A stretch of 64,000 nt of DNA, taken from Candidatus Coatesbacteria bacterium. GTDB taxonomy: Bacteria; RBG-13-66-14; B26-G2; JAUVZD01. Both the position numbers and the translations under genes were made by a program. The notes beneath the pieces were generated by a model. The model was given only the letters and a program-made list of their open reading frames with translations. It ran no database searches and was not told the DNA's origin. The first letter of the stretch is position 1, and the number at the start of each line of letters is the position of its first letter. The stretch spans positions 364,557 to 428,556 of the forward strand of contig JAUVZD010000001.1 in assembly GCA_030602715.1 (NCBI GenBank), written 5' to 3'. Positions 3,565-63,803 of the stretch are shown here, one piece after another.

Positions 3565-5285
3565 GCATACAACCCCTGCCCAAGGAGATTGCCGAACGCA
3601 TCGCTGCCGGTGAGGTAATAGAGCGTCCCGCCGATGTGGTTAAGGAGCTTTTAGAAAACTCACTGGACGCCGGCGCCACCTCCATCGTCCTGGAGTTTAC
3701 CGACGGCTGGCAGAGGATGGAGGGGCGAATAGTGGTAAGCGACGACGGCGAGGGCATTGTGCCCTCGGATCTGCCCCGCTTATTCCACCGCCACTCCACC
3801 AGCAAGATACGGACCCTGGAGGATTTGCAACGGCTGAACACCTTGGGCTTTCGCGGCGAGGCGCTGGCAAGTATGGGCGTGGTGGCAGAGGTGAGTATAA
3901 CCAGCAAGGTGAGCAAAGAACCCTTAGGTCGGCGCATCTCCTGCATCGGGGGTAGGATAGGTGATATTGAGGAGTGCGGGTGTGCGGACGGCACCCGGGT
4001 GAGCGTCTCCCGGCTCTTCTACAACACCCCGGCCAGGGCAAAATTCCTGAGAAGCGAACTGTCTGAATTTCGCTACGCCAGCAGAATTCTGAGCAGGCTG
4101 GCTTTCTTTCACCTGCCGGTCGGTTTCATCCTCCGCCATAAGGGAAAGGACCTGCTATCCACCCCGCAAAGGGACAGCGACCTGCTGGGGCGGGCGGCTG
4201 ATATATGGGGGGGTCAGCTTGCCGAGCAGTTGCAAAAGGTAAACCACAGCAAGGGACCTGTGGAGATAAGCGGGCTTGCCGCCCTGCCCAGTGTCTTTCG
4301 CTCCAATACCAACACCATTTTTCTTGCGGTAAACTACCGCCCCATTCAGGACCGCAGTCTGGTCTTCACCATCTCCAGGTTGTATAAAGGCATTCTCCCC
4401 AGCGGGCGCTTCCCCATAGCGGGGATAAATATCATCGTCCCCCCCGATTTCATAGATGTCAATGTCCACCCTCGCAAAGAGGAGGTCCGCTTCCAGAAAC
4501 CGGCTCTGGTGAAGGAGGCGATTAGCGAAGCGCTTCTCCCCTTAATCGCCGGCTCCGTCACCGGCGTCGGCTTTAGCCCCCAACAATCGCCCTTAGACCT
4601 TTCCACCATCTCCCCCAGGATGAGTGCGGTGGGGACGGAACTGAAGCCCTTCACCCACCTGAGCCATAAATTAGCTGATGAGGCATTCACCACCGAAAAT
4701 GCCCAGCGAGATTGGCACATAGTCGGGCAATTGGAGAGAACCTACATCCTGGTAAGCTACGGCGGGGGTTTGGTAATCATTGACCAGCACGCCGCCCACG
4801 AACGCCTCCTCTACAACTCCCTCAGGGCAAAGAGAGCCGGCAAGACTGCACACACCCAGCCCCTGCTCATCCCACGCCCGGTGCACATGAGCGCGGAAGA
4901 GGCACGCACCCTGGAGAAGTTCCAGAATTCGCTAACGGAGATAGGCCTGGAGGTGGAGCGATTCGGTGGGGGGGTGTGGCTCATCCGCACTCTGCCGGCA
5001 GGTATCCCTCCCCAGGACGAGGAGGGACTTCTGCGGGACATTCTGGAGGGTCTAATGGAGTTGGGGCGGAGCAGTCGTCTGGAGGAAGCGGAGGAGGATA
5101 TACTCATCCGCACCGCCTGTCATGGTGCGGTGCGAGCGGGCGAGGATATGAACCCGGCGGAGATGGAGGCGCTGGTGGAGAGGATAATGTCCCTTCCGCT
5201 GGGTGAGAGGCGCTGTCCTCACGGGCGACCTCTGGTGGTGGAGATAACCGCCGAGGAACTATCCAAACTCTTCGGGCGCAGTTAA
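3561..5285 (+). CDS. mutL: DNA mismatch repair endonuclease MutL
   Basis: IAAGEVIERP, VKELLENSLDA, GFRGEAL, DVNVHP, endonuclease motif DQHAAHER, ACH and CPHGRP. Overlaps the mutS stop. Confidence 0.97.
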   Translation: MSIQPLPKEIAERIAAGEVIERPADVVKELLENSLDAGATSIVLEFTDGWQRMEGRIVVSDDGEGIVPSDLPRLFHRHSTSKIRTLEDLQRLNTLGFRGEALASMGVVAEVSITSKVSKEPLGRRISCIGGRIGDIEECGCADGTRVSVSRLFYNTPARAKFLRSELSEFRYASRILSRLAFFHLPVGFILRHKGKDLLSTPQRDSDLLGRAADIWGGQLAEQLQKVNHSKGPVEISGLAALPSVFRSNTNTIFLAVNYRPIQDRSLVFTISRLYKGILPSGRFPIAGINIIVPPDFIDVNVHPRKEEVRFQKPALVKEAISEALLPLIAGSVTGVGFSPQQSPLDLSTISPRMSAVGTELKPFTHLSHKLADEAFTTENAQRDWHIVGQLERTYILVSYGGGLVIIDQHAAHERLLYNSLRAKRAGKTAHTQPLLIPRPVHMSAEEARTLEKFQNSLTEIGLEVERFGGGVWLIRTLPAGIPPQDEEGLLRDILEGLMELGRSSRLEEAEEDILIRTACHGAVRAGEDMNPAEMEALVERIMSLPLGERRCPHGRPLVVEITAEELSKLFGRS

Positions 5286-6065
5286 AGTATTCCCCCCGCA
5301 CGTGGGGTGTGAATTAAAAAAAGGAGAAAAGAAATGAAAAAGGCTAATGAAAAGGAAATTGACGGAGAGGAAATCTTAAAGATGCTTGAAAAAGCTTGGA
5401 ACGATTTTATTGGCTATTACGACAAATGGGCGCCCAAATATTACAGCGCCTTAACATCACCAAAGGATTTAAGTGAGAAAAAAGCGAAGAAAAAGCAGAA
5501 GGATGAGCATTGGATATGTTGGACTGAAGATGATTTGATGTTACACCTTGGAAGATTCTTTTATAAGCAATTATATAAGCAATTAGGCAGAAATTCGGGC
5601 ATTGAAGTGCACTTGAACAAAATTTTAAGTTATTCAAGTTTTAAAGGATATACGTTTCAGAGTAAAATAAGAGAACTCAATAACAGCCTTAACCGAAAAA
5701 GAGGAGTAAAACTAGATTTGATAATTACCTATGAAACCAGCAAAGGTCCGTTTTTATTATGTGCTGAAGCAAAATTCTTCCACTACTCACAAGAATCTTT
5801 TAGAAGAACTGTACAACGAGTGATACAAGAGGATATAGACAGGTTAGTAGCTCTTAAAGAGCTAGGAATTGCTGAGAACGTTGTTTTTCTACTATTTGAT
5901 GATTATTATTATCTAAAAGAAAATGTAAAACATAAAGCAATTAAAAAAATTCTAGAAAAAGCCCGGAAACAAGGCATTACTGTATTTTATCACAATTCAA
6001 AAGCAAAAATAGTGAGGACGCCACATACATAATGCTCACATAGCCCTTGAATAATTCGCAGTTAA
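5277..6065 (+). repeat. 9-bp direct repeat CGCAGTTAA (5277-5285 and 6057-6065) flanking an AT-rich insertion
   Basis: The first copy is the last 9 nt of mutL. The second is 2 nt before the miaA ATG at 6068. Both read directly from the sequence. Confidence 0.7.
5334..6032 (+). CDS. AT-rich hypothetical protein, possible PD-(D/E)XK nuclease fold
   Basis: 232 aa with AAGGAG RBS. KLDLII...LCAEAKF resembles D...(D/E)xK catalytic spacing. Composition differs sharply from the flanks. Confidence 0.55.
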   Translation: MKKANEKEIDGEEILKMLEKAWNDFIGYYDKWAPKYYSALTSPKDLSEKKAKKKQKDEHWICWTEDDLMLHLGRFFYKQLYKQLGRNSGIEVHLNKILSYSSFKGYTFQSKIRELNNSLNRKRGVKLDLIITYETSKGPFLLCAEAKFFHYSQESFRRTVQRVIQEDIDRLVALKELGIAENVVFLLFDDYYYLKENVKHKAIKKILEKARKQGITVFYHNSKAKIVRTPHT

Positions 6066-6067
6066 CT

Positions 6068-7030
6068 ATGAATGAAAATCGCACTCCCCTTCTAGCAATT
6101 GTGGGTCCCACCGCAAGCGGAAAGAGCAAGCTAGCGGTAACCCTGGCTGGTAAGCTCACCGCCGAGGGTATTACCGACGGTGCGGAGGTCATCTGCTGTG
6201 ACTCCCGCCAACTGTATAAGGGTGCACCCATCGGCACCGCCACACCCAGGCCCGAAGAACGAGCGGGAATACCCCACCATCTTTATAATTTCCTAGACCC
6301 CGGTAAGGAGCTCTCCGCCGGAGAGTATTCCCGCCTGGGGAGGGAGAAGGTCACCGAGGTCCGGGGGAGAGGGAATCTGCCGATTCTGGTCGGCGGAAGC
6401 GGCTTCTACTTTCAAGCACTGGTGGACGGTCTCTTTGAAGCTCCCGAGGTTGACCAAGCCATTCGTAAAAGGCTCGTCTCCTACTGCAAGCGACGGGGAG
6501 TGGTCCGTCTGTGGCGCATACTCTCCCGCCTGGACGGGGAGAGCGGCTCCCGCATCAAACCAAGAGACCGACAGCGGGTCATCCGGGCTATGGAGGTACG
6601 CCTGCAGACCGGAAAACCCCTCTCCCAGCTTCAGCAAAATATACCCCCACCACCCAACTATGACCTGCTTGCCCTGGGCATCGCACCGCCCCGGGAGATT
6701 CTCTATCGGCTTATAGAGGAGCGGGTGGATAAGATGATAGCCGCCGGTCTGGTGGAGGAGGTTGAGGGGCTTCTCTCGCAGGGATTTAGCAAAGAAAGCC
6801 CGGTCTTCAAAGCCATCGGCTACGGGGAGATTGCCACCCATCTGGAGGGAGAGACTGGTCTGGATGAGGCTGTCAAGCAGATCAAGACCCACAGCAGGCA
6901 GTATGCCAAACGCCAGCTCACCTGGTTTAGGAGGGATAAGCGCATCAGGTGGATTGAATGGAGCGGGGAACAAGCTCCGCAGGAGCGGGCGTTGCAGTTG
7001 GTGCAGGAGTGGCTGAGAGGCGAGCGGTGA
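6068..7030 (+). CDS. miaA: tRNA dimethylallyltransferase MiaA
   Basis: GPTASGKS P-loop, DSRQLY, IGTATP, GGSGFY, AIGY, YAKRQLTWFR. Start placed at ATG 6068. Confidence 0.97.
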   Translation: MNENRTPLLAIVGPTASGKSKLAVTLAGKLTAEGITDGAEVICCDSRQLYKGAPIGTATPRPEERAGIPHHLYNFLDPGKELSAGEYSRLGREKVTEVRGRGNLPILVGGSGFYFQALVDGLFEAPEVDQAIRKRLVSYCKRRGVVRLWRILSRLDGESGSRIKPRDRQRVIRAMEVRLQTGKPLSQLQQNIPPPPNYDLLALGIAPPREILYRLIEERVDKMIAAGLVEEVEGLLSQGFSKESPVFKAIGYGEIATHLEGETGLDEAVKQIKTHSRQYAKRQLTWFRRDKRIRWIEWSGEQAPQERALQLVQEWLRGER

Positions 7031-7073
7031 GCGGGGGAGGGGATTTAGCCCGAAGGGAAATCCACTCTCCCGC
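7031..7073. terminator. GC-rich hairpin between convergent genes
   Basis: GCGGG.GGAG.GGATTT..CCC-GAA-GGG.AAATCC..CTCCCGC imperfect stem between the miaA stop and the convergent 7079 stop. Confidence 0.5.
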
Positions 7074-7078
7074 CTTTG

Positions 7079-10437: not shown

Positions 10438-11627
10438 TTGATGCCCATCCTCTTCTCCTGCCGTTTTTTAAACTCGGCAACGCCCTCATATACCGCCCGG
10501 GCGATCAAATCCTGCCAGTAGGGGTCGTTCAGCTTCTCCTCCTCCTCCGGGTTGCTGATGAACAACCCCTCAACCAGTATGGCCGGCATATAACAGCCCA
10601 CCAGGACGAAGAAAGGCGCCTGCTTCACCCCTCGGTCGGTAGAGCCCAGACGGGCTATGAGCGCCTGCTGAACCAGCTCCGCCAGCTCGCTGGACTCCTC
10701 CAGAAACTCGTTTTGTGCTATGGCGGCAAGGATGAACTCCAGATCGGAGAGCTTGGAGGTGGATAGGTTAGGGTCTTCCATGAGGAAGTCCTCGTTCTCC
10801 CGCACCGCCACCGCCCGCTCATCGTCGGTGCGGGACTCGGAGAGGAAGAAGGTCTCCGTGCCGTTCGCCTTGGAGGAGTAGTAAGCGTTGTTGTGGATGG
10901 AGATGAACAGGTCGGCTTTAACATCGTTTGCCAGACCGGTGCGGTCGGCGAGATAGACCATGCTGTCATCATATCTACAAAGATAGACGGTAACACCCAG
11001 TTCTTTCTCCAGATAGTTCTTCAGCTTCAAAGATATCCGCAGATTGACATCCTTCTCCATAACTCCCGTCGGACCCACGGCTCCGCTAAAGCGCCCGCCA
11101 TGCCCCGGGTCTATGCAGATTGTGTTTATCGCCAGGTCATTGTCGGGGATTATCTCCTTGGGGTCATATTTATAGACATTCTCCTCGGTGCTGATATTAG
11201 AAGGATAGTCACCTGTAAAAGCCTCCTCCTTGGGGAAAATTTTTATCACTATGCGTGCCGGGTCCGAAAGCAGATAGCCCTTATATTTGCCAGCCCCCTC
11301 AATCAGGCTGATGTCCATATACAGCACATCCTGATAGTAACTGACCGAATAGCCGGCTATCAAACCGGCGCCCCCACCCTGTTCGGACACCGAGTCAGCC
11401 AGTGTGCAATCGGCGACCGAGAGGCGAAGTCCCCCGGAGGAGGTGGACCCCAATCCAAACTCGCTCTCCTGGTTCAGGGTGATTATCAAGGCGTCAAAAT
11501 CGTCATAGCTCTTCGCCACCACCTGCGCTATGGTGTAACTCGCCCCAAAGGCACATGTGCAAAGATGCAGGAGGAGAATCAGGGCTATCCCTGAACCTGT
11601 AAAAGACAATCTACCCACGAGTCGCAT
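10434..11627 (-). CDS. N-acetylmuramoyl-L-alanine amidase (Amidase_3, AmiC-like)
   Basis: ICIDPGHGG, EKDVNL, LFISIHNNA, PAILVE. Signal peptide and AMIN-like N-terminal region. Confidence 0.93.
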   Translation of the reverse strand: MRLVGRLSFTGSGIALILLLHLCTCAFGASYTIAQVVAKSYDDFDALIITLNQESEFGLGSTSSGGLRLSVADCTLADSVSEQGGGAGLIAGYSVSYYQDVLYMDISLIEGAGKYKGYLLSDPARIVIKIFPKEEAFTGDYPSNISTEENVYKYDPKEIIPDNDLAINTICIDPGHGGRFSGAVGPTGVMEKDVNLRISLKLKNYLEKELGVTVYLCRYDDSMVYLADRTGLANDVKADLFISIHNNAYYSSKANGTETFFLSESRTDDERAVAVRENEDFLMEDPNLSTSKLSDLEFILAAIAQNEFLEESSELAELVQQALIARLGSTDRGVKQAPFFVLVGCYMPAILVEGLFISNPEEEEKLNDPYWQDLIARAVYEGVAEFKKRQEKRMGIK

Positions 11628-12075
11628 CCTTGAGCTCCCTCTCCACATCACGCTCCATGTCCCTCCTTTTTATGTCCTCCCGACGGTCAATCTTGCTCTT
11701 TCCCCGCACCAGCGCCAACTGCACCTTCACCTTTCCCGCCTTGAAATAGAGCTTGAGGGGAACCAAGGTCAGCCCCCTCTCCTGCACTTTACCGGTGATG
11801 CGCTTAATCTGCCACTTGTGCAGTAGAAGACGCCTGGGTCGTCGGGGGTCCAGATTCTGGTGGCTGGCGGGAGCGTAGGGGGCTATGTGCATGCCATAAA
11901 GGAAGACCTCCCCATGCACCGGTCTGCCGTAAGCTTCCTTAAGGCTCACCCGTCCACTGCGCAGGGACTTTACCTCAGCACCTATCAGAGAAATACCTGC
12001 CTCAAACTCCTCTATCACCTCATAATAGAAGCGTGCCCTGCGGTTCTTTACGATGATTTTTATCTTCTCGTCCAT
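11611..12075 (-). CDS. smpB: SsrA-binding protein SmpB
   Basis: NRRARFYY, EAGISLIGAEVKSLR, RRLLLHK, GLTLVPLKLYFK, GKSKIDRRE. Confidence 0.97.
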   Translation of the reverse strand: MDEKIKIIVKNRRARFYYEVIEEFEAGISLIGAEVKSLRSGRVSLKEAYGRPVHGEVFLYGMHIAPYAPASHQNLDPRRPRRLLLHKWQIKRITGKVQERGLTLVPLKLYFKAGKVKVQLALVRGKSKIDRREDIKRRDMERDVERELKDATRG

Positions 12076-12097
12076 AAGATGATTTTAAGTTTACCCC

Positions 12098-12126
12098 ATT
12101 ATAAAAAAAGCCCTGCACCCTGTCAA
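12098..12126 (-). promoter_or_regulatory. Sigma70-type promoter of smpB
   Basis: Minus strand TTGACA-17 nt-TATAAT, a perfect consensus, 22 nt upstream of the start. Confidence 0.85.
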
Positions 12127-12167
12127 GGGATTAGGATTCTAATTGGATTAAATCTACCCAAATATCC

Positions 12168-15041
12168 CTAATAATTCCACCCCACGAAGAACCGCACCGG
12201 GGTGTCCTTGGAGATGGAATGAAAGTCGGTCTTTTTGGCGACATCCAGCCTGAAGACGAAGACATTGAACAGTCCCCAGCGAAGGCTGAAGCCAAAGTCC
12301 CCCCTCACTCCCCCCAGCTTCTCGTCCCAGGCTTCACCTATATCAAAGAATAAAGCCCCGTGGAAGCTCCCCAGATTTGCTTTCCCAATCGGCGTATCTA
12401 TGACCATTTCTTTCAGAATGGGGAAACGTAGTTCCTGGTTGAATATAAACAACTTGGTGCCCATAAAATCACGATATTTATAGCCCCGCATGGAGAGGCT
12501 CCCCCCCATAGCCAAGGGAAGGACATCAGGGCCTCCACTGGCCCGAAAGATGAGCCTCAGGGCATAACAGCTCTGCTGGCTTATGCGGACATATCGGCGC
12601 AGGTCGCAGGAAAGGAGGTAATACTGGAACTCCTGTCGGGTCAAGTCGCCGGTCTGGCTTACGGTCAGATTATAGCGGGAGCCGTCAATGGGACCCACCG
12701 AGTTCCACAGGGAAGTATCTTTGACAAAGCTGACATAGTGCGAAATTGCCACACCACCCTTCAAAGGCTCATCAAAGAAAGACCGCCTGAAGCCGTAGAG
12801 GTTTACTCCAGATTCAATACGATAGAAACGGGAGAGGGGATAGGAAAGGAGGACGGTTGCACCGTAACGCCTTTCGCTGTAGAGGTAGCCCAGGTTCCAA
12901 TCGTAGTAGTCGTCCAGGTAATGAAAGCCCCCCAAGCCGAAGTTGAGACGGTGGGCGAGATTATAGTAATTGACCCCTATATTCATTCGGCTGAAGAAGT
13001 CGCCTACGGTCTCTGCGGAGTTGGAGAAGCTCAAAGTGATCATATTATCGTTAAGCATGTCGGTAAAACTGAAGATAGCCCCAGCCCCACCTCCGAAGTC
13101 CGGGGAATATGCCACCTCAGCCTGGATGATATCCAGGGAATAGTCGGCGCTATACTTTTCGTGGGGATAATCGTCCGCCATATCCCCCTCCGCTTCCTCC
13201 TGGCCATCTCCTTCCTCTAAAATGACCTCCACCGAGCCGATGAAAGCAGAGCGATAGGGCATGGTCAAAATAGAGATGTTTCCCTCACTATAGCAGTCAA
13301 ATATCAGCTCCTCTCCATCCGTGGTCAGGGTGGGCTCAAATGCTCCGGTGGTGAAGTTGGTATTCTGCCAGAGCTCGCCCGTGGAAAGGTCAAGAGTGTA
13401 AATATTGAACCGCCCACTGCGGTCGGAGGCGAAGAGAACCTTACCACCTTCAAGAGGACGGGGATGGATATCCCGGCAGTGCTCATAGGTCAAACGCTCC
13501 ACCTCCCCAAGCCCACCTTCTTCGGTCAACTTCAACAGATACAGACTGCTCTCGTCCTCCCCCTCATCCGCCGAGCGGTCGGAGGAGAAGAGGACGTTTT
13601 CTCCATCGGGCAGGACGGTTGGGTCCCGGTCTGCATATCGGTCGTCGGTCAGAGCGGTCAGCTCCCCGTTAGCTCTATCCAGCAGATAGATGTCCATCTG
13701 CCCGGAGAGGTCCTGCCCGGCAAAGACCAGTTTATCCCCCCGGGGAAAGAAGGCGGGCGAAAAGATGCCTATCAATTTTTCAAAGCGGTAGGTGGCGACC
13801 ACCTCCCGGCTGTTCAAATCCATTATGTTGAGCACATCGTTTGCCCCGCTCTTGGAGACGAAGGCAAGCTCGCCTGACGGGCTCACCGCCAGGGAACTGC
13901 GGAAGATATGCAGGGACTCAAACTCAGGCGTCCGCTGACCCTTGACGATACACTCCACATCGCTCAAATAGATGCTTCTTACACCATGGTCACTTACCTC
14001 CAGACAACCCATATAGATATTGGTGTAGCCACTGCGATTGGAGACGAAGACCAGGTAATCTCTGCCGCCCAGGGTGAAGGCTTCAGCTGAGACATCAACA
14101 CTCTCGCTCTTCGCCAGGGGGAGAGCGGAGGTGGTCGGCTCATCGTACTCCACCACCAGGGGAAGATACTCCTCCCGCAGTTTCCCCTCCCAGCCCCGAG
14201 AGAGCGTCCCCACATCCACGCCCAGAGTAAACTCCATCACCTTGTTGAAGCTCTCATCCACCCAGATATTGTCCAGCATAGCCGGTATCTTATCCTCCCC
14301 GTAGGTCTCGGCGATGTATCCCACCAGGCTCTGCCCTTCCTTATAAACCAGATATGAGCGGTAAGAATGATGAATATCCTCCAGGGGGGCAAAGTAGCCG
14401 TTAAGAACCGCATCACCAAGCACCATATCCGCTTCGCTGTCCCACCGGGATGAGTAATACTCGGCGATTCCCTCCATATACCACAACGGAGGGATGGGAT
14501 AGTAGAACTTGTCCCGGGAGCGCATCACAAACTTTATCTTGTTGAGGGTGAAGTAGTGGACTACTTCGTGGGTGAGGGTGGCACGGAAGCGGGAAAGGGA
14601 GCCGTCAAAGGGCATCAACACCCGACCCTTGAAGAACTCGGTCACCCCTGCGACGGATTCGGGAAGGATGTAGGGGATGACATTGGTCTCCTGGAAGGGT
14701 TGATGGCTGGAGTAGATGATAAGGGGGATTTTGGATGTAAGGGTGTGGTTGAGATGGACCGAGAGGGTGGGGATTATGGTCTCCAGCATCTCGGCGGCTT
14801 CCAGAGCGAGCCACTTCTCCTGGGGGTAGAAATATATGTCAGCGGAAGGAGTGTGCATGACCTGCCAATCCAGGTCCAGGTATTGCACCTTGTTTTTTCC
14901 GAAATAGTAGTATCCACAAGACACCTCTGGCAACACCAGGAGAGAGAGAGCTACCACGATAAACAAACAAACTCCCAACTTTGCCGTTGCTCTCCCAGTA
15001 TATCGGTGAACAGGAGTTCTATCTTCGGTAAAAATACGCAA
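12168..15041 (-). CDS. Omp85-family outer membrane protein with N-terminal gluzincin (peptidase MA-like) domain and PD40/WD40-like propeller
   Basis: Signal peptide, YFGKNKVQY, HEVVH followed by LWYMEGIAEY, PD40-like repeats, C-terminal barrel with LAMGGSLSMRGY and terminal FFVGWNY. Confidence 0.85.
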   Translation of the reverse strand: MRIFTEDRTPVHRYTGRATAKLGVCLFIVVALSLLVLPEVSCGYYYFGKNKVQYLDLDWQVMHTPSADIYFYPQEKWLALEAAEMLETIIPTLSVHLNHTLTSKIPLIIYSSHQPFQETNVIPYILPESVAGVTEFFKGRVLMPFDGSLSRFRATLTHEVVHYFTLNKIKFVMRSRDKFYYPIPPLWYMEGIAEYYSSRWDSEADMVLGDAVLNGYFAPLEDIHHSYRSYLVYKEGQSLVGYIAETYGEDKIPAMLDNIWVDESFNKVMEFTLGVDVGTLSRGWEGKLREEYLPLVVEYDEPTTSALPLAKSESVDVSAEAFTLGGRDYLVFVSNRSGYTNIYMGCLEVSDHGVRSIYLSDVECIVKGQRTPEFESLHIFRSSLAVSPSGELAFVSKSGANDVLNIMDLNSREVVATYRFEKLIGIFSPAFFPRGDKLVFAGQDLSGQMDIYLLDRANGELTALTDDRYADRDPTVLPDGENVLFSSDRSADEGEDESSLYLLKLTEEGGLGEVERLTYEHCRDIHPRPLEGGKVLFASDRSGRFNIYTLDLSTGELWQNTNFTTGAFEPTLTTDGEELIFDCYSEGNISILTMPYRSAFIGSVEVILEEGDGQEEAEGDMADDYPHEKYSADYSLDIIQAEVAYSPDFGGGAGAIFSFTDMLNDNMITLSFSNSAETVGDFFSRMNIGVNYYNLAHRLNFGLGGFHYLDDYYDWNLGYLYSERRYGATVLLSYPLSRFYRIESGVNLYGFRRSFFDEPLKGGVAISHYVSFVKDTSLWNSVGPIDGSRYNLTVSQTGDLTRQEFQYYLLSCDLRRYVRISQQSCYALRLIFRASGGPDVLPLAMGGSLSMRGYKYRDFMGTKLFIFNQELRFPILKEMVIDTPIGKANLGSFHGALFFDIGEAWDEKLGGVRGDFGFSLRWGLFNVFVFRLDVAKKTDFHSISKDTPVRFFVGWNY

Positions 15042-15052: not shown

Positions 15053-15217
15053 CTACTTACTCTTCTTATGCCGCCTGCCAGCCAACCAGGCGTGAATCAG
15101 AATGGTGAGGCTGATGGTGTCCAGAGCTATAAGGATACAGAGAATTGCTAAATCCGGTAGAATATAACACTCCACCACCTTGAATGTTTTCAGAATAAGA
15201 AAAATAATTGAAGCCAT
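15053..15217 (-). CDS. Possible small hydrophobic protein (54 aa)
   Basis: GGAGG RBS ahead of ATG 15217, hydrophobic core, basic tail. Fills an AT-rich gap. No recognisable family. Confidence 0.35.
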   Translation of the reverse strand: MASIIFLILKTFKVVECYILPDLAILCILIALDTISLTILIHAWLAGRRHKKSK

Positions 15218-15246
15218 CCATTCACCTCCTGTTAACAGGGTATCTT

Positions 15247-16026
15247 CTATCCCTTCCTGCCCAGAGCATAGAACCAGGGTAGATATACCATCCATTCGCC
15301 GGCATCAAGCGCTTGACGCTCCTCCCGCTTCAATCGCTGTAGCTTCCCTTGCGACACAATATCCTTCCAAGCTCGCTCTCTGAACCACCAGGAGAGCTCA
15401 AAATCGCCCTCATCGCCCTCCCCCAGCACCTGTCCCTGAACTCCCACCTCGGTCTTCAAGCCAGCCTTTACAAACAACTTGCGCAGTCGCCTTCCCAGAA
15501 ATGGGTCCAGCCCCTCCCGCCGTAAACTCTCCAGGTGTAGTTCTGCTATCTCCTTAAGGGGCCAGCAGATGAATCCACCGTAATCCGGTTCTGCACAGGC
15601 TACCACCCAACCTCCCCGGCGAGTAACCCGAGCCATCTCCTGCACCATATCGTCGGGTGTCTGCGACCAGAAGAGTGTGAGATGGCACACAGCCGCCGAG
15701 AAGGTCTCATCCTCAAAGGGGAGAGCCTCACCCGAAGCTAAGCAGTGCAGAATCCCTTCATCTCCACTGTGTACGGCTTTCGCCCGGCGGAGAAGCTCCT
15801 CATCCCTATCCACCGCCACCAGCGAACCGGAGGAACGATGTGCCAGCTCAGCGCTTATCACTCCGCTTCCCGCACCCACCTCTAGAACAGGCGAAATACG
15901 GGCGATATTTATGCGCCGATACAAAAAATTGCGAGTGGCGTAGCTGAACTCAGCCTGCCTGCGCAGATAATATTCCCATTCCTCAGCACTCAAGCCTGCT
16001 ATACGACGCTCCCCTTCACCCATCAT
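15247..16026 (-). CDS. Class I SAM-dependent methyltransferase
   Basis: VLEVGAGSG, VAVDRD, LPFEDETF, MARVTRRGG, AEPDYGG. Starts 5 nt after the radical SAM stop. Confidence 0.88.
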   Translation of the reverse strand: MMGEGERRIAGLSAEEWEYYLRRQAEFSYATRNFLYRRINIARISPVLEVGAGSGVISAELAHRSSGSLVAVDRDEELLRRAKAVHSGDEGILHCLASGEALPFEDETFSAAVCHLTLFWSQTPDDMVQEMARVTRRGGWVVACAEPDYGGFICWPLKEIAELHLESLRREGLDPFLGRRLRKLFVKAGLKTEVGVQGQVLGEGDEGDFELSWWFRERAWKDIVSQGKLQRLKREERQALDAGEWMVYLPWFYALGRKG

Positions 16027-16031
16027 TGAGC

Positions 16032-17396
16032 CTAAGCGGTTGAGACGCTCTCCATGCAGTATAGAACCTCCTCCTCGGAGACCGCCAGGGGACAGCCCCC
16101 ACCGCAGACCTCCAACTCCGGGCAGTCATGGCACTTCTCCATCAGGAACTTCCGCTCCCGCAAATCCTCCAATAAGGTATGATGCCAGATTTTTTCCCAA
16201 TCATCCTTGAGGATATTACCCACCGATTGATAGTAGCTCTGGCAGGGGAGCACCTCTCCATCCGGCTCTACGCACATATTATACTTCCCCGCAGTGCATT
16301 GCTTTATACCCAGCTCCAGTTCAAGGGGGTTGAAAAGGCAATATTGGGTGGGGGTATACCAGATAAAGCGCAGGTTGTTGCGCTGGCAAGCGGAGAGAAG
16401 CCTCGGCAGAACTTCGCTCAATTCATCCTCGGATATCGCAAAGGGGTAGCCCTTGCCGTGCCCGGAGCAGATGATGCCGTTTGCGGCGATCACCTCCAAC
16501 CCCAGGGAAGCAAGAAAGTCCACCGTCTTTTCAATAGTCGGCGAGTTATGCTTGGTCAGTGTAGTGTTGGTAATAGTATAGACCGGGGTGTTGATGGCGT
16601 TCTTTATGCTGGCTACGGTCTCCCGCCAGGCACCTTTCTCTCCCACCATCAGGTTGTGGATGGACTCATCATGGCTCTCCAGGGTAATCTGAAAATGGTC
16701 TATTCCGGCAAGCACCAGTCCATCAAGATAGTCCTTATCGGCTAGTTTGCGCCCGTTGGTCAGAAGCCCGGTAACCACCCCCAAATCCTCGGCATACTCC
16801 ACAAGCTCCCGCAAATCCTCCCGCACTGTAGCCTCACCGCCGGTAAAGCAGATATGGGGAATTCCCGCCTCCCAGCAACGCTTGATGACCTTCTTCCACT
16901 GCTCGGTAGAGAACTCCTCAACCTGGCGGGGCTTGCCGACATAACAGTGGGGGCACATATTCTGACAGCGGTAGGTCAAAGCCAGGTCCATGCGGTAGGG
17001 GGCTATGGTCTCGGAGGTAAAGGGCTCAATGCGTTCAACATCCAGGAAGGTTATGGGACAGACATCGTCGGTTGTGGTGAGGATATCCATCATCTCCTTA
17101 ATCCTCTCCAAATCATCCACAACCTGCTTTTTGCTCACCCGATAGCGCCGTTTCATGCTCTTGATTATCTCTTCGTCGTCGGCGTCAGCCATAATCATCC
17201 TGGCATACTCCGTGCCGGTGGGATTGAGATGGATAATCTTGCTGGCGTTCAGTATCAGCGTGCCCGCGCCCCCCTCCTCCACCCGCAGGTGGAGCCGAAA
17301 GTTGCCGAACTCGTTATCTATTCGCTTCTCATACAAGCCCGTTTCCAGTGGCTTCTGTATGGTGAAGAATCCCTTTATTTTCCCTTTCACTCCCAT
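16032..17396 (-). CDS. Radical SAM/SPASM peptide-maturase-like protein with N-terminal PqqD/RRE-like domain
   Basis: CQNMCPHC, FTGGEAT, LLTNG. SPASM motifs CTAGKYNMCVEPDGEVLPC and CHDCPELEVCGGGC. N-terminal LNPTG..YARMI..DDEEII..RRYRV..VVDDL resembles PqqD. Confidence 0.9.
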   Translation of the reverse strand: MGVKGKIKGFFTIQKPLETGLYEKRIDNEFGNFRLHLRVEEGGAGTLILNASKIIHLNPTGTEYARMIMADADDEEIIKSMKRRYRVSKKQVVDDLERIKEMMDILTTTDDVCPITFLDVERIEPFTSETIAPYRMDLALTYRCQNMCPHCYVGKPRQVEEFSTEQWKKVIKRCWEAGIPHICFTGGEATVREDLRELVEYAEDLGVVTGLLTNGRKLADKDYLDGLVLAGIDHFQITLESHDESIHNLMVGEKGAWRETVASIKNAINTPVYTITNTTLTKHNSPTIEKTVDFLASLGLEVIAANGIICSGHGKGYPFAISEDELSEVLPRLLSACQRNNLRFIWYTPTQYCLFNPLELELGIKQCTAGKYNMCVEPDGEVLPCQSYYQSVGNILKDDWEKIWHHTLLEDLRERKFLMEKCHDCPELEVCGGGCPLAVSEEEVLYCMESVSTA

Positions 17397-17421
17397 AGTC
17401 CTTACCCCTTGAAGAAACCGG

Positions 17422-17613
17422 TCATACCTGTTGCTGTTCCAGAGCTATCACCACCAACTCGTCATCCTCTTGCAGGTGGAAACCCACCTTCGGGTTCAGA
17501 TAAAGCTTACCCTCCCTTATCACCTCAACCGGTATAGCCCGATGGTTATGCATAAGGATCCCAAAAACCAAACAACATAACTGACGAGAATTACAGTGGT
17601 TATCTTTCTCCAA
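17422..17613 (-). pseudogene. Remnant of a TrkA-C/RCK C-terminal domain
   Basis: AIPVEVIREGKLYLNPKVGFHLQEDDELVVIA matches the RCK-C pattern. No N-terminal domains are present. Confidence 0.45.
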
Positions 17614-19757: not shown

Positions 19758-19759
19758 CC

Positions 19760-20086: not shown

Positions 20087-20109
20087 AACCCAATCCCTCC
20101 AAGGAGCAT

Positions 20110-48048: not shown

Positions 48049-48459
48049 ATGATGATTAAAAAACTCTCAACTTCAGATCCATATAAGTCTATGTGTAGCG
48101 ATTTATATTCGTTAGGAATATTTGACAAAGTTATCAATGGACTACTATCAATAACGGAAAAGAATGACACAGATCAAACGATAATAATTGAGAGGAAATT
48201 TACAAATAACTCTGGAATTGATATAAGTTTTGGATATTACTTCATTCAATGCCTAAATTCCCCCTGTGAGGAAGAACATCTAAAGCATTTCCGAGGTTCT
48301 TTGGAAACCTTTGTAAAACGAAAAACAAAATGTAACTATATGGAGGTAGAACCAATTGTTATTGCTCCGGAATATAGCGATGTTGTTATTAATTTTATTG
48401 ACCAATATAACAGGATACAAAGGAGAAAACCAATAAAACTATTTAGATATGGAGAATAA
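48049..48459 (+). CDS. Hypothetical protein (AT-rich island gene 1)
   Basis: 136 aa with AGGAG RBS. C-terminal IVIAPEYS...IKLFRY resembles the tail of NucS/Mrr-like folds; no clear catalytic motif. Confidence 0.7.
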   Translation: MMIKKLSTSDPYKSMCSDLYSLGIFDKVINGLLSITEKNDTDQTIIIERKFTNNSGIDISFGYYFIQCLNSPCEEEHLKHFRGSLETFVKRKTKCNYMEVEPIVIAPEYSDVVINFIDQYNRIQRRKPIKLFRYGE

Positions 48460-48461
48460 CT

Positions 48462-49499: not shown

Positions 49500-50305
49500 T
49501 GCAGAGATTAGGACCTGATAAGGTTTATTTCAAAGAAGGTTCAATCGTAATTTACAACGATGACTTTCTAAGTACAAAGTGCATAGATAAAGGTTGCATT
49601 GATTTGATTGTAACTTCCCCTCCTTACAATGTAGATATAAAGTATGGTTCATATAGCGATGAAATTCCCTATAAAGATTATTTAAAATTTACTTCAGATT
49701 GGCTTACCAAATGCTTTCAATTGTCAAAGGATGACGGAAGGTTTTGCCTAAACATACCATTAGATAAAAACAAAGGAGGACAGCAAAGTGTATGCGCTGA
49801 TATAACAACAATAGCAAAAAAGGTTGGATGGAAATATCACTCTACAATAATTTGGAATGAACAAAACATCTCAAGGAGGACTGCATGGGGTTCTTGGCTT
49901 AGTGCCTCAGCTCCCTATGTAATAGCCCCCGTTGAAGTAATCGTAATACTATATAAAAAGAACTGGAAAAAAACCAGTGGGACCAAACTGTCTGATATCA
50001 CAAAAGAGGAATTTGTTGAGTATACAAATGGAGTTTGGAATTTTAGTGGAGAGAGTAGGAAAAAAATAGGACATCCAGCACCATATCCCATAGAATTACC
50101 AAGAAGATGTATAAAGTTATTCAGCTACACCGGTGATACAATTCTTGATCCCTTTCTTGGAAGTGGAACAACTCTTATTGCTTGTTTGAACACAAAAAGA
50201 AAAGGAATTGGTATAGAAATAGATAAAAAATATTGTGAACTGGCTAAACAAAGACTTATCGCAGAAGGAAAAGTTTTTCAGTTAAGACTTGAATCTACCA
50301 AATAG
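49499..50305 (+). CDS. Amino DNA methyltransferase, beta class
   Basis: VTSPPYN, RTAWGSWLSAS, GHPAPYP, LDPFLGSGTT. Start overlaps the upstream stop. Confidence 0.93.
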   Translation: MQRLGPDKVYFKEGSIVIYNDDFLSTKCIDKGCIDLIVTSPPYNVDIKYGSYSDEIPYKDYLKFTSDWLTKCFQLSKDDGRFCLNIPLDKNKGGQQSVCADITTIAKKVGWKYHSTIIWNEQNISRRTAWGSWLSASAPYVIAPVEVIVILYKKNWKKTSGTKLSDITKEEFVEYTNGVWNFSGESRKKIGHPAPYPIELPRRCIKLFSYTGDTILDPFLGSGTTLIACLNTKRKGIGIEIDKKYCELAKQRLIAEGKVFQLRLESTK

Positions 50306-50320: not shown

Positions 50321-51514
50321 TCACTCCCCCACCACTGACATAAAGTCGGCGTCCTTCCACAAGCTCACGAAGGCTAAGTCCACACTCGCGTTCGCCAAAA
50401 ACCCGGGGTCTAGCGCACCGGCTTGTTCAAGATACCACAGGGCGGTCTCCTTGCAATCCTGCACCGCACATATCTGCGCCGCCCAGTAATAGACCTGGGG
50501 GATGTCGTCCTTCAGCTCAATAATCCGCTCCATAGTGGTGAGCGCCTGGTCGTATTTTCGCAGGTTGATGAGCGACGCCGCCAGATTATAATGGGCCTCC
50601 ACATTGCCCGGCTCCTCCTCTATCGCCCGCTGGAAATAACCCTCCGCCTCTCCGTCCCTGCCCAACCGGGCAAGGGCAAAGCCCAAAGCCACCCACAAGT
50701 CTATGTCCTCATAGCCCTCAACGGATGCCCGCTCAAAGGCTTCCAACGCCTCATCATACCGCCCGGCCTGGGTGAGGGACCAGCCCTCCCAGAATAGCTC
50801 CTGCGGTCCCCCTTCGCCGAATGTCTTTGCGGTCTCCAGAGCGGACATCCCCCCGTAGGTATCCCCCAGGTTCATACGAGCCCGAGCCAGACCGAACCAG
50901 CCGTCGCCGTCGTGGGGCTCAAAGACCAGATAGCGCTCAAATGCCGATTCTGCTTCCTCGTCCAAGCCGGCGGAGAGCGCCGTCTCCGCCTTCAGCTTCC
51001 AGGCGTCGGGGTTGTCCCCCTCAATGGAGAGAAGCGCCGCCAGGTCGTCAAAGCAATCCTGGTAATATCCCAACTTACTGTTGAAGAACGCCCGATAGTA
51101 GAGCCCCAGAGGATAATCCGGCACCAGGTTCAGGGCGATATCCAGCTCATCCAGAGCCTCACTCACCTCTCCCAGGTGGAAGAGGGCAAAAGCTATATGG
51201 GCGTGGATCTCCGCCATCTTGCCCTCGGGGGCATAGATGACCGCTGTATCCAGACTGTCCAGAGCCTCCTGGAACCGTTTCAGGGAGTTCAGGGCGGCGC
51301 CCTTGTTAAAATACGGCGCCCAGTAGTCCGGGGCGATGTGGATTGCATGGTCGTAGGCTTCAATTGCGGTCTCAAAGCCACCGCTGGAAGCCATGAAGAG
51401 CCCGTAGCGATTGAACTCCTCGGCGTCCCTGTTGACCGCAAAGGAGACGGTCGCCGAAAGCAGAACTAAAAACATAAAGGCGACAACTCTCACATTACCC
51501 TCCATTATAAGCAA
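50321..51514 (-). CDS. Secreted multi-TPR protein
   Basis: Signal peptide and about 9 TPR repeats (YFNKGAAL, AHYNLAASL, YYWAAQICA). Confidence 0.87.
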   Translation of the reverse strand: MLIMEGNVRVVAFMFLVLLSATVSFAVNRDAEEFNRYGLFMASSGGFETAIEAYDHAIHIAPDYWAPYFNKGAALNSLKRFQEALDSLDTAVIYAPEGKMAEIHAHIAFALFHLGEVSEALDELDIALNLVPDYPLGLYYRAFFNSKLGYYQDCFDDLAALLSIEGDNPDAWKLKAETALSAGLDEEAESAFERYLVFEPHDGDGWFGLARARMNLGDTYGGMSALETAKTFGEGGPQELFWEGWSLTQAGRYDEALEAFERASVEGYEDIDLWVALGFALARLGRDGEAEGYFQRAIEEEPGNVEAHYNLAASLINLRKYDQALTTMERIIELKDDIPQVYYWAAQICAVQDCKETALWYLEQAGALDPGFLANASVDLAFVSLWKDADFMSVVGE

Positions 51515-51954: not shown

Positions 51955-52578
51955 TTATCCTCCTACCCCCTCCCTTATGAGACTTACCACTCTGCCGATT
52001 ATGCGCACCTCGTCCTCCACCCCCTCCATCACTATGGGCTTATATCTGGGGTTGGAGGGGATGAGGGTGGGGCGTCCGCCCTTGCGGGAGAAGCGTTTGA
52101 CCGTAGCCTCCTCGCCCAACAGAGCCACCACGATCTGACCCTCCTCGGCGGTCTCGGCACGGCGCACCACCACCAGATCGCCGTCCAGGATGTGGTCGCC
52201 TATCATGCTGTCCCCACTAATCCGCAAGAGAAAGATATCCCCCTGGGGAAGCAGACTGCGGTCTATGGATAGCACTCCCTCCCAGTTCTCCTCCGCCAGC
52301 AGGGGCACCCCGGCAGCCACCCGACCGATGATGGGAAGAGCCCTGGCGCTTACCGCCGGTCCCTTTCCCTCACCTATCACCGAAAGCCCCCGGGAGAGCC
52401 CCGGCTTACTGCGCAGGTAGCCCTTCCTGATCAGGGCCTGCAGATGGTCAAAGACCGCCCGAGGACCGATGCCCAGCACCCCGGCCATCTCCCGCACCGT
52501 GGGGGGCTGACCGTTAGCCTCTATCCACTCCACCACCACCCGATAGACCTCTCCCTGTCTGTGGGTCAAGCCTTCCAT
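51955..52578 (-). CDS. lexA: SOS repressor LexA
   Basis: LT.RQ, PPTVREM, GRVAAG.P cleavage site, GDSMIG (Ser), EEATVKR (Lys). Confidence 0.96.
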   Translation of the reverse strand: MEGLTHRQGEVYRVVVEWIEANGQPPTVREMAGVLGIGPRAVFDHLQALIRKGYLRSKPGLSRGLSVIGEGKGPAVSARALPIIGRVAAGVPLLAEENWEGVLSIDRSLLPQGDIFLLRISGDSMIGDHILDGDLVVVRRAETAEEGQIVVALLGEEATVKRFSRKGGRPTLIPSNPRYKPIVMEGVEDEVRIIGRVVSLIREGVGG

Positions 52579-62629: not shown

Positions 62630-63430
62630 ATGGCAACCCCCTTCACTAATTTCCGCATATTCTGGCAGAGCGCCTATCTCTCCTACAAGGCGCTCTTCCG
62701 CTGGTTCTCGCCCATCTCTTACGCCTCCAGCAAGGTGATAATGCCCCTCTTCCAGCTCATCTTCTTCACCTTTCTGGGCACCTTCGCCACCGGCGCCGAG
62801 AACGCCCCCTTCTTCCTCATCGGCAATTCGGTGCTGGCGGTGGCGATCAACGGCATCTACGGCGTCTCCATGACCGTGGGGATGGAACGCAGGCAGGGCA
62901 CCCTGCCCTACCTCTTCGGCACCCCGGCAAACAGGCTCTTCCTTTTCAGCGGGCGGGCGGTGGTGCACATCTTTGACGGCATGGTGGGTGCGGGAATAAG
63001 CCTGCTCGCCGCGGTGCTCATCTTCCGCCTGGACCTCTCGGCCACAAATCCCCTCGCCTTCGCCCTGACCATCCTCATCACCTCCGCCTCCACGGCGGCT
63101 ATGGGACTTCTCCTGGGCTCCCTCTCTCTGGTCACCCTCAATGTGATGTTTTTTAACAATACTATCTATTTCCTCCTGCTGGTCTTAGCCGGGGTCAACC
63201 TCCCCCTGGAGATGCTCCCCGGCTGGGCGCGGATAATCTCTCAGGGACTTCCCCTGACCCGGGGGCTTGCCGCGGCGCGGATGATAGTCGCCGGTTCGGG
63301 CTTAGGCGACATCTGGTGGCTGCTGGTGCAGGAACTCGGCATCGGGGCGATATACTTCACCATCGGCTATATTGCCTTCAGCCTATTTGAGAGGGAAGCG
63401 AAGAAGCGAGGGACGTTGGAGGCGTATTAA
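62630..63430 (+). CDS. ABC-2 type permease
   Basis: ERRQGTLPYLFGTP, LAGVNLPLEMLPGW, PLTRG, six TMs. Confidence 0.92.
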   Translation: MATPFTNFRIFWQSAYLSYKALFRWFSPISYASSKVIMPLFQLIFFTFLGTFATGAENAPFFLIGNSVLAVAINGIYGVSMTVGMERRQGTLPYLFGTPANRLFLFSGRAVVHIFDGMVGAGISLLAAVLIFRLDLSATNPLAFALTILITSASTAAMGLLLGSLSLVTLNVMFFNNTIYFLLLVLAGVNLPLEMLPGWARIISQGLPLTRGLAAARMIVAGSGLGDIWWLLVQELGIGAIYFTIGYIAFSLFEREAKKRGTLEAY

Positions 63431-63510
63431 ATATTATGTGGTCAAGGCATACATTTATCAATCGTTCTTTTGAAAACTCTCTTATATAGAATTGGGCTTA
63501 AAAAAATGCC

Positions 63511-63539
63511 TTGACATAAACCAAGAAAAAGGATTTAAT
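63511..63539 (+). promoter_or_regulatory. Promoter of the hicB-like gene
   Basis: TTGACA-17 nt-TTTAAT, then GGAGG RBS and ATG 63576. Confidence 0.65.
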
Positions 63540-63575
63540 ATTCTACAAAGAATCATTAAATTGGAGGAAATTCCT

Positions 63576-63758
63576 ATGAAGTTCAACATACCAATAATAG
63601 TTGAAAAGGACGAGGATGGATACTTCGCCTACGCGCCCGACCTGCAGGGATGTTACACACAAGGCGATACCTATGAGGAGACTTTGGCGAATATTAAAGA
63701 TGTGGTCATCCTGCATATAGAGGACCGTTTGGAGTCGGGTGATAAAATTACAGTATAA
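63576..63758 (+). CDS. Short HicB-family antitoxin, no HicA partner nearby
   Basis: IIVEKDEDGYFAYAPDLQGCYTQGDTYEETLANIKD, 60 aa. Confidence 0.85.
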   Translation: MKFNIPIIVEKDEDGYFAYAPDLQGCYTQGDTYEETLANIKDVVILHIEDRLESGDKITV

Positions 63759-63770
63759 AATTACTAAAAT

Positions 63771-63803
63771 GCAAAGAGAAGGGGAACGCTGGAGGCGTAT
63801 TAG
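63771..63803 (+). repeat. Diverged 33-nt stub of the 62630-63430 permease 3' end
   Basis: GCA AAG AGA AGG GGA ACG CTG GAG GCG TAT TAG (AKRRGTLEAY*) versus 63398-63430 GCG AAG AAG CGA GGG ACG TTG GAG GCG TAT TAA (AKKRGTLEAY*). Confidence 0.8.

Follow-up and report, generated by a model that had tools for sequence, protein, structure and literature searches.

The window, by which we mean the whole 64-kb stretch of DNA analysed here, holds four genes (mutL, accA, a DNA methyltransferase gene and an ABC permease gene) whose 3' ends recur, in part, on the far side of a block of cargo DNA. The original prediction had placed repeats at these four genes, and all four were found where they had been claimed; a fifth stub, the original tail of accA at 33645-33677, had been missed. 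The repeats form two classes: short exact ones (9 nt, CGCAGTTAA; 6 nt, GGACTG) flank primary insertions, and long ones (33, about 78-105 and 509 nt) consist of diverged versions of a gene tail. A flanking direct repeat of more than 30 bp is present for the 509-, about 78- and 33-nt cases and absent for the 9-nt and 6-nt ones. When the window was scanned throughout, matches of a C-terminus to same-strand downstream DNA rose above noise only for accA, the methyltransferase and the ABC permease, and N-termini or upstream regions gave nothing comparable except true paralogues.

At mutL (3561-5285, plus strand), the left repeat consists of the last 9 nt of the gene (5277-5285, stop codon included), and CGCAGTTAA occurs in the 64 kb in two copies only, over these last codons and at 6057. 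Between the copies lies an insert of 771 nt and 33% GC (5286-6056, plus strand) with a single gene (5334-6032, plus strand), whose 232-aa product belongs to a small unannotated family. Because a D128...E145-x-K147 motif is invariant in this family, the protein is probably a PD-(D/E)XK-type nuclease. The right copy, the mutL stub (6057-6065, plus strand), is followed by CT and then by the start of miaA at 6068. The empty site survives in two relatives, L164 and L165, and in the outgroup L171: mutL ends in TGA or TAA, 2 nt follow, then comes the ATG of miaA, and the repeat is single-copy; the L171 junction is of the CGCAGCTAACTATGAATG type, the same as in the window. The repeat is only 9 nt long, yet it is backed by empty sites in three relatives.

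The accA locus is a nested, tandem array. The functional gene (38391-39392, minus strand, ending in VDTRTV*, the asterisk marking the stop) carries in its 3' part the repeat copy H1 (38391-38790), and the 109 nt after its stop, T1 (38282-38390, minus strand), also belong to the repeat. The cargo C1 follows (36422-38281, minus strand), comprising a 3'-end fragment of a gene with 65% GC (38057-38281) and an intact gene for a secreted transglutaminase-TPR protein (36542-38002). Beyond it lies the accA stub (35914-36421, minus strand), composed of H2 (36022-36421; 133 codons and the stop) and T2 (35914-36021), and 96.7% identical to H1 plus T1. The repeat (38282-38790 versus 35914-36421), which had been put at 505 nt, is real but measures 509 nt, with 400 nt of the accA 3' end and 109 nt downstream, and the T segment is cut off at the same point in both copies. 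A second cargo, C2 (33678-35913), contains a low-GC TPR gene (34257-35795, plus strand) and an Na/Ca-exchanger gene (to 34138, plus strand) that is 5'-truncated exactly at the junction. The array closes with the third accA stub (33645-33677, minus strand; GGACTG GCG GAG AAA GCC ACC GAT AAA GGG TAA), an ancestral tail that matches the functional accA end of the relative L081. Its GGACTG (33672-33677) is repeated at 38396-38401 and 36027-36032. In L081, accA leads directly to a TraF-like gene, whereas in the window another 4,718 nt, bordered by GGACTG, intervene; the L081 genome lacks the whole 4.7-kb insert complex, and no relative with C2 but without C1 was found.

The exact 9- and 6-nt repeats at mutL and at the outer accA junctions could also be target-site duplications that arose when nonautonomous elements were mobilized by a transposase supplied in trans. 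Several transposase families also make 9-nt target duplications, the repeats surround compositionally foreign DNA, and the sequence is single-copy at the empty site of the relatives. We nevertheless regard this origin as improbable: the two repeats differ in length, the right end of the accA insert falls inside the truncated Na/Ca-exchanger gene, and no ORF scanned in the window has a Pfam transposase match. Searches also revealed no terminal inverted repeats of the cargo and no second copy of the inserts within the window, on which grounds a DNA transposon or MITE was rejected as well.

The two long accA copies differ in a telling way. Over 399 nt, H1 and H2 have 11 differing sites, 10 of them at third codon positions; at the codon level, nine differences are synonymous and two nonsynonymous, against a neutral expectation of 75% nonsynonymous (P about 1e-4). 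With L081 as the outgroup, all seven changes assigned to the stub are at third positions (7/7, P about 5e-4). Because 10/11 of the differences fall at third positions, the accA stub is, as judged from this codon pattern, an allele that once worked in another lineage and not a decaying local duplicate. The original prediction had envisaged DNA exchange between relatives at fixed slots, and this part is supported: the long repeats behave as alleles of different lineages with nearly all differences synonymous, and the slot on the 3' flank of accA is variably occupied, with different occupants in four relatives.

The third anchor, the N6/N4 DNA methyltransferase gene M1 (42701-43660, minus strand), is of native-like composition and contains the repeat at 42741-42818. 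Its cargo is a gene for a PQQ-like beta-propeller protein whose N-terminus has a hydrophobic segment (41240-42694, minus strand), and the M1 stub (KDEGMAKMEGDGRIQGYEDGVFWERNVGKAVMLRW*) follows at 41051-41158 on the minus strand. Bases 41079-41156 of the stub align with M1 at 85-88% nucleotide identity, with 18/26 residues identical. The stop codon had been predicted to lie within every stub, which is true of mutL, accA and the ABC permease; the M1 stub, in contrast, has beyond the matched stretch its own different tail with a stop at 41051, and the stop region of the gene is not copied. The stub shows neutral decay and is present in L081 too. Adjoining it, outside the repeats, a low-GC type II restriction-modification pair of the ThaI family (39427-40969, minus strand; R 40319-40969, M 39427-40359) sits tightly between the M1 stub and the start of accA. 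The window has two restriction-modification islands; besides the ThaI pair, there is a low-GC one whose end lies 15 nt from a stop codon.

The fourth case starts from an ABC-2 permease gene (62630-63430, plus strand), the tip of which (63398-63430, AKKRGTLEAY*) matches the stub at 63771-63803 (plus strand, AKRRGTLEAY*). The AT-rich cargo of 340 nt (63431-63770, plus strand) has its own promoter-like site and a gene for a 60-aa HicB-like antitoxin (63576-63758); hicA is absent from it. A hairpin after the stub (63828-63855) is presumed to be the original terminator. Tip and stub differ in six codons, of which five are synonymous (the stop included) and one exchanges K and R, so that here, too, the copies look like donor and recipient alleles. 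Against the whole window, the match alone is weak; its position and codon pattern make it convincing. The functional permease tip of the relative L166 is a mosaic that has the variants of the window's stub, a further sign of slot exchange, and the crossover point therefore varies between strains. At about 80% identity, 33 nt are short for a RecA-mediated crossover; the repeat may have arisen in some other way, or from an arm that was originally longer. Empty sites had been proposed as a check, and for this and the methyltransferase case none was found among the relatives, the successes being confined to mutL-miaA (L164, L165, L171) and accA (L081).

As the source is a metagenome, contigs chaining the haplotypes of coexisting strains could in principle have created the stubs; the 509-nt copies differ by about 3%, near the between-strain divergence. 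We compared the window with an independent assembly, the Logan contigs from SRR14872667, made by another assembler. These contigs break within both long repeats; they are 100% identical to the window at 38324-36370, 42803-38739 and 42774-64004 and reproduce the accA-stub and hicB junctions, and one of them spans both the T1-C1 and the C1-H2 junction while carrying H2-specific variants. The methyltransferase stub recurs in L081, from another sample, the left junction of the permease case is present in L166, another assembly, and L083 reproduces that case in full. With these junctions recovered independently, an assembly artefact is the least credible of the explanations considered, and we give it hardly any weight.

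The original prediction had seen no recombinase in the window, and our scans agree: Pfam searches covering most ORFs, some of which lack any hit, revealed no integrase or transposase, and Pfam and PADLOC scans found no mobility gene in or beside the inserts. The junctions share no motif, and the cargo ends cut through genes, as in the 5'-truncated Na/Ca exchanger and the foreign gene 3' fragment in C1. An integron gene cassette was rejected, there being no integrase among the ORFs scanned and no imperfect palindromes at the cargo ends in a plain palindrome search.

Integrative elements that reside in the 3' ends of protein genes, and integrase-less derivatives of them, are well known: phage 21 and e14 at icd, and ICESt1 and CIMEs at fda. 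The cargo could accordingly consist of decayed or trans-mobilized, CIME-like site-specific elements whose integrase acts on the 3' ends of protein genes; the replacement tip would keep the gene whole, the displaced host tip would end up at the far end, and repeated integration would give the tandem array at accA. The likeness is considerable, as the repeats include the gene tip and stop codon, the tips have diverged synonymously as they have at icd beside phage 21 and e14, the accA locus is nested and accreted in tandem, and the cargo (a restriction-modification pair, an antitoxin and a nuclease) is typical of islands. Such elements differ, however, in having an integrase, a fixed core and defined ends. 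Here, no ORF scanned in the window matches a Pfam integrase, the repeats vary from 6 to 509 nt with no core common to the junctions, genes are cut at the cargo ends, and the cargo units measure only 0.34-2.2 kb. Moreover, the 509-nt repeat includes 109 nt of an earlier insert, which is expected for general homology and not for a fixed att site, and the crossover point differs between the window and L166. We thus find this origin unlikely, though less so than the other alternatives. A recognizable ICE, IME, CIME or prophage remnant was rejected, as neither a recombinase domain in the window ORFs scanned nor defined ends and a fixed core were found.

A more radical possibility, raised by the original prediction, is a novel trans-acting system that inserts genes directly after resident stop codons. 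In its favour, the 64 kb contain five events, each at the 3' end of a gene, a low-GC restriction-modification island besides the ThaI pair ends very near a stop codon, and the density exceeds that in control loci. So high a density is not obviously predicted by a purely passive process, although the window was picked for showing the pattern. The idea is not supported, however: the junctions have no common sequence or structure, the cargo lacks inverted repeats, the repeat lengths are as heterogeneous as 6 to 509 nt, genes are truncated at the cargo ends, and the position is explained by the end of homology together with selection. We consider such a system very improbable. Only slightly better are the chances of a related proposal, that this lineage, related to the candidate phyla Coatesbacteria/Omnitrophota, might have an unusually active 3'-tip recombination route that loads single accessory genes, possibly with a dedicated trans factor, and uses gene tails as reusable docking sites.

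We favour, with a probability of roughly 0.6, a simpler explanation: the stubs would be gene-gain scars of general recombination with the DNA of relatives, through Campbell-type single-crossover or one-ended homologous plus illegitimate integration, filtered by selection. A fragment of DNA from a related strain, or for some cargo from an unrelated source, would enter the cell. The circularized fragment could then undergo a single reciprocal crossover with the chromosome (Campbell-type), or a homologous crossover at one end could be combined with an illegitimate joint upstream of the end of homology (HFIR-like); the two routes are topologically equivalent. Chance microhomology would leave a short exact repeat, 9 nt at mutL and 6 nt at accA. 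Where the donor brings the 3' part of the gene beside its own accessory gene, two tail alleles would come to flank the cargo, over 33 nt at the ABC permease, about 78-105 nt at the methyltransferase and 509 nt at accA; one tail would remain on the gene and keep it intact, and the other would become a dead stub. The repeats would end at stop codons for two reasons: donor and recipient are no longer homologous beyond the shared gene, and in so packed a genome (the mutL-miaA spacer measures 2 nt) an insertion persists only if it restores the end of the gene. The observed basis for this explanation consists of the repeats, the empty sites, the allele-like accA and ABC stubs, the neutral decay of the methyltransferase stub, the truncated genes at cargo ends and the lack of inverted repeats and, in the ORFs scanned, of recombinase domains. 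The pattern also extends beyond the window: in 1.86 Mb of unrelated control loci, orphan C-terminus to downstream matches numbered 10, versus 3, 3 and 1 in the three other orientations, and one of the 10, in L084, concerns a mazEF-like gene pair enclosed by a tail stub of miaA. No donor sequence was found for any cargo, and we therefore infer, and do not see, the homologous arm and the illegitimate joint; the same applies to the circular or one-ended intermediate, the DNA entry route and the RecA dependence.

The stubs look like a pattern already described in other bacteria and not like a new integration machine. By analogy, our preferred explanation matches insertion with long target duplication as well as HFIR and C-terminal displacement. 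In the former (Nobusato et al. 2000; Furuta, Abe and Kobayashi 2010, PMC2853133), restriction-modification genes are inserted with a long target duplication and, as small units, without mobility genes, mostly in naturally competent species; the direct repeats are tens to hundreds of bp long and single-copy in an empty-site relative, and some overlap the 3' end of a neighbouring gene. That class is defined on restriction-modification cargo, however, whereas the long-repeat cargo here is a transglutaminase, a beta-propeller protein and a HicB-like antitoxin, and "target duplication" is misleading for accA, the copies being alleles of different lineages. HFIR and recircularized one-armed DNA (de Vries and Wackernagel 2002; Prudhomme et al. 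2002; PMC3240628) likewise join one homologous arm to nonhomologous cargo with joints at 3-10 nt of microhomology, the size range of GGACTG at the outer accA junctions and of CGCAGTTAA at mutL. With one-armed DNA in Escherichia coli, the commonest outcome, in 56/60 recombinants, was an arm duplication of 109-950 bp by a single crossover of the recircularized molecule (PMC3240628). Classical HFIR usually deletes recipient DNA, in contrast to the duplication seen here in the sequence. In Rhs, CDI and T6SS arrays (Jackson et al. 2009; PMC5361080), a module brings its own 3' part, the resident 3' end is shifted downstream, and repetition of this produces rows of orphan 3' ends; HFIR has been proposed for the displaced ends at T6SS and Rhs loci (PMC5361080). 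The genes concerned there encode polymorphic toxins, the variable 3' end being the payload and the orphans being reusable; here, the anchors are ordinary or housekeeping genes, and decay is evident in the methyltransferase stub at least. Displacement of the Rhs/T6SS type itself was rejected, as mutL, accA, a DNA methyltransferase and an ABC-2 permease are not polymorphic toxins with an immunity gene.

Overall, the findings suggest that a compact genome, here that of a deeply branching uncultivated bacterium, can acquire single accessory genes without mobile-element machinery; among the genes acquired are those for a restriction-modification pair, an antitoxin, a nuclease-like protein and secreted proteins. 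The accA codon pattern indicates that "long target duplications" include at least some that consist of two alleles brought together by between-strain recombination and are not duplications, which bears on the way restriction-modification units and other small units of this kind move. A gene-tail stub on the far side of cargo also provides a simple genomic marker with which gene gains in metagenome-assembled genomes can be dated and put in order.

The four cases in which cargo is bracketed by a tail stub, a leftover copy of the resident gene's 3′ end lying behind it, are probably a known kind of recombination scar, seen here in a new lineage and with cargo other than restriction-modification genes. 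All four repeats named in the original prediction are present. Of CGCAGTTAA there are exactly two copies in the 64 kb, one at the stop codon of mutL (5277) and the other at 6057, separated from the miaA start by 2 nt; the accA repeat runs for 509 nt at 96.7% identity and consists of 400 nt of coding sequence and 109 nt past the stop; the DNA methyltransferase repeat covers 26 codons (18/26 identical); and that of the ABC permease is 33 nt long, reading AKKRGTLEAY and stop in the gene and AKRRGTLEAY and stop in the stub. The claim that each stub includes the stop codon holds for mutL, accA and the ABC permease, whereas the methyltransferase stub has a different tail and stop of its own.

We searched the window for further stubs by tiling at the DNA level and, at the protein level, by comparing the first and last 40 residues of every gene with 6 kb on each side. 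Above-noise matches of a C terminus to the same strand downstream were limited to three genes, those for the methyltransferase and the ABC permease as well as accA, and the remaining strong matches were real paralogues, namely three methyltransferases and three zinc-ribbon genes (19.6–20.5 kb). The latter (19563–20496) are small tandem genes with a common C-terminal CxxC...CxxC zinc-ribbon motif, intact yet stub-like in the scan. The same scan on a control of 160 unrelated loci (1.86 Mb, 1,608 ORFs) gave 10 orphan matches from a C terminus to downstream against 3, 3 and 1 in the other three orientations. By eye, several of the 10 resemble tandem repeats or members of small paralogue families more than stubs. 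The window holds two long stubs over the same score threshold per 64 kb, about 10 times the control rate, but it was picked for the pattern and the difference therefore carries no weight. Another of the 10 is a clear parallel, on an unrelated metagenome contig (Ga0210377_10013791, locus L084), where a two-gene cassette (2514–4267; ORFs of 69 and 117 aa, MazE/MazF-like by eye) follows miaA and has the final 32 codons of miaA behind it in degraded form, arranged just as the window's stubs are.

The GC content of the window is about 57%, with sharp-edged low-GC islands at 5.3–6.05, 34.2–35.9, 40.3–41.0 and 48.0–50.3 kb. Queried with accA, the species-representative genome collection held no close genome, the best matches being 59–61% identical and mostly from Omnitrophota MAGs; the nearest named accA in a large protein collection is from Candidatus Coatesbacteria (72%), and exact look-ups of the window accA and of the case 1 (mutL) cargo protein gave no match. 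A metagenome scan with a concatenated mutL/miaA/ABC query returned distant loci only, since the mutL motif IDQHAAHE is universal and dominated the matches; it did show the mutL–miaA adjacency to be widespread. Close strains are represented by the metagenome loci L081 (JGI 3300009529; 96% nucleotide identity across 24.5–44.3 kb), L164 and L165 (NCBI GCA_013282475.1 and JGI 3300029813; both 96–97% across 0–9.6 kb) and L166 (NCBI GCA_030629625.1; 96% across 61.2–63.6 kb), a more distant lineage by L082 and L171 (ENA ERZ27247725; accA 81% and MiaA 61% identical), and a far relative by L169 (ENA ERZ27247709 k141_836139; accA 73%, genome GC about 35%).

Between mutL and miaA, L164, L165 and L171 have the mutL stop, 2 nt and then the miaA start, with no insert, and since the junction of L171, TCGCAGCTAACTATGAATGAAAAG, is of the same type as the window's, the window flanks at this spot are ancestral. 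On this comparison, the insert of 771 nt and 33% GC came in with a 9-nt duplication. With a spacer of only 2 nt, both genes stay intact only if the insertion rebuilds the stop codon. L164 and L165 diverge sharply from the window over 43 nt at the junction, and case 1 might have been read as the import of a block from a divergent donor; we dropped this reading because the outgroup L171 has the same junction type as the window, which assigns the divergent block to the L164/L165 lineage. The block, of very high divergence (L164 9992–10034; same junction in L165), extends across the stop of mutL and 12 codons at the start of miaA (MDEGKIPLLAIL versus MNENRTPLLAIV), while the window's junction type is that of the more distant L171; small "homeologous" blocks of such kind have been described (PMC2884548), and it may be the scar of an earlier event at this spot. 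The family of the cargo protein is small (67 clusters among 1.8 billion representatives) and has the invariant residues E65, D67, D128, E145 and K147. A structure model from the single sequence was uninformative (pLDDT 48); the alignment-built model was confident (pLDDT 91), and its best fold matches were McrC, SgrAI and other PD-(D/E)XK nucleases, all of them weak. Together with the invariant residues, these matches make the earlier description of the protein as nuclease-like a reasonable, though not proven, prediction.

Compared with L081, the accA locus has 4,718 extra bases (33678–38395), starting 3 nt ahead of the accA stop and with GGACTG at both flanks, and a third accA tail, absent from the original list, still holds the L081-type end (..TGGKSHR and stop) at 33645–33677. 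In minus-strand reading order, accA is followed by a 109-nt segment, T1, and by the cargo C1, a 65% GC fragment of a gene's 3′ end and then an intact transglutaminase-TPR gene; next come the accA stub H2, the segment T2 and the cargo C2, a low-GC TPR gene on the opposite strand and a Na/Ca-exchanger gene without its first half, cut exactly at the junction, and finally the ancestral accA tail and a TraF-like gene. The T segments (35914–36021 and 38282–38390) stand after both accA copies and have the same end point, where C1 and C2 part; an open frame (..LFEGDTIFALERSGQRFTADQIILHRSGGYVLVSPVEAG) crosses T and has no match to anything tested, including the 4HBT gene behind accA in relatives. Comparison ruled out that T is a remnant of this thioesterase gene, which follows accA in L082 and L169. 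In L082 the order is accA-4HBT-TraF-like, and in L169 two N6/N4 methyltransferases and a 376-aa gene (11021–14500) lie directly behind accA, with a conserved run of 4HBT-EamA-TraF-like-RNase Y after this restriction-modification island and no accA stub behind it. With the flank filled so differently among relatives, it represents a spot of repeated insertion throughout the clade, and what it holds is pieces of genes in a patchwork rather than a tidy cassette.

Three Logan contigs from SRR14872667, made with another assembler but possibly from the same reads, match the window at 100%: one (42774–64004) covers all of case 4, the hicB insertion, another spans 42803–38739, and the third (38324–36370) crosses T1|C1 and C1|H2 and bears H2-specific variants. 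As is usual for de Bruijn graphs, the contigs stop within the long repeats, and the phase of H1-T1 versus H2-T2, H1 being the tail of the functional accA copy, thus rests on the window's own assembly. Two of them overlap by 30 nt and both end there (42774–42803), inside the methyltransferase repeat, which has no exact 31-mer in common with its stub; this graph branch may reflect a co-existing variant, for example one without the PQQ gene.

A second low-GC island (48049–50305; 33–35%) has three plus-strand genes, coding for a 136-aa protein with no function assigned, a 345-aa protein that weakly matches NucS_C/PD-(D/E)XK-like sequences and a type II methyltransferase of the N6/N4 kind. Its neighbours are dinB (46558–47838) and a TPR gene (50321–51514), the island ending 15 nt from the stop of the latter, with lexA (51955–52578) nearby, and no stub or flanking repeat was found at it. 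Elsewhere, the gene for a radical SAM/SPASM protein (16032–17396), PqqD-like in its N-terminal region, has small lower-GC ORFs on both sides (15053–15295 and 17422–17613), and the region 15053–17613 is a possible peptide-modification (RiPP) cluster. The stop of the ABC permease gene is immediately followed by a near-perfect inverted repeat (GTCAAGGCAT ... ATGCCTTGAC; 63441–63515), which overlaps the TTGACA of a promoter-like site upstream of hicB and might serve the antitoxin as an operator; a hicA partner is absent.

The cargo has no terminal inverted repeats, the window contains no tRNA, tmRNA or Rfam RNA as a possible integration target, and none of the ORFs scanned with Pfam gave an integrase or transposase domain, in agreement with the statement that the window lacks a recombinase. 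The junctions have no common motif, and what the cases have in common is that direct repeats, of any length between 6 and 509 nt, enclose foreign or allelic DNA. Such repeats would be left if a circular molecule and the chromosome underwent one reciprocal crossover, and an equivalent route would be one homologous crossover with an illegitimate joint upstream of the end of homology. In E. coli receiving one-armed DNA, 56 of 60 recombinants had arm duplications of 109–950 bp, formed via recircularisation and a single crossover, and classical homology-facilitated illegitimate recombination (HFIR) with deletion was a minority outcome (PMC3240628). For restriction-modification genes that have no mobility genes with them, "insertion with long target duplication" has been described, chiefly from competent species, and some of the repeats overlap gene 3′ ends (PMC2853133); in Rhs and T6SS loci, old 3′ ends pushed downstream have been attributed to HFIR (PMC5361080). 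A system targeting stop codons, one of two routes originally proposed, is unneeded and lacks positive support, the junctions being motif-free.

The other route, by which relatives swap the contents of slots, is broadly right where the long repeats are concerned, their codon pattern being allele-like. H1 and H2 differ at 11 sites in 399 coding bases, 10 of them third codon positions, and the codon changes are synonymous in nine cases and non-synonymous in two, where random change would be non-synonymous in 75% (P about 1e-4); taking L081 as the outgroup, all seven changes of the stub lineage are at the third position (P about 5e-4). This bias implies that the stub evolved as a working gene until recently and, to judge by their codons, H1 and H2 are alleles of different lineages brought together in one genome. 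The ABC permease follows the same pattern, its tip and stub differing in six codons, five of them synonymous, counting the stop, and one a K/R change; the functional tip in L166 bears the variants found in the window's stub, and the last ~60 nt of the gene form a patch about 20% divergent against a background of 4%, a pattern that fits crossovers at variable points rather than a fixed recombinase site. The methyltransferase stub, common to the window and L081, differs by 12–14% between them versus 3–4% in neighbouring genes and appears more degraded in L081, which marks it as an older relic; a short call of the M2 gene in L081 proved an annotation quirk, its reading frame being intact. The useful addition of our analysis lies in the codons, which show the copies of the repeat to be alleles and not duplicates.
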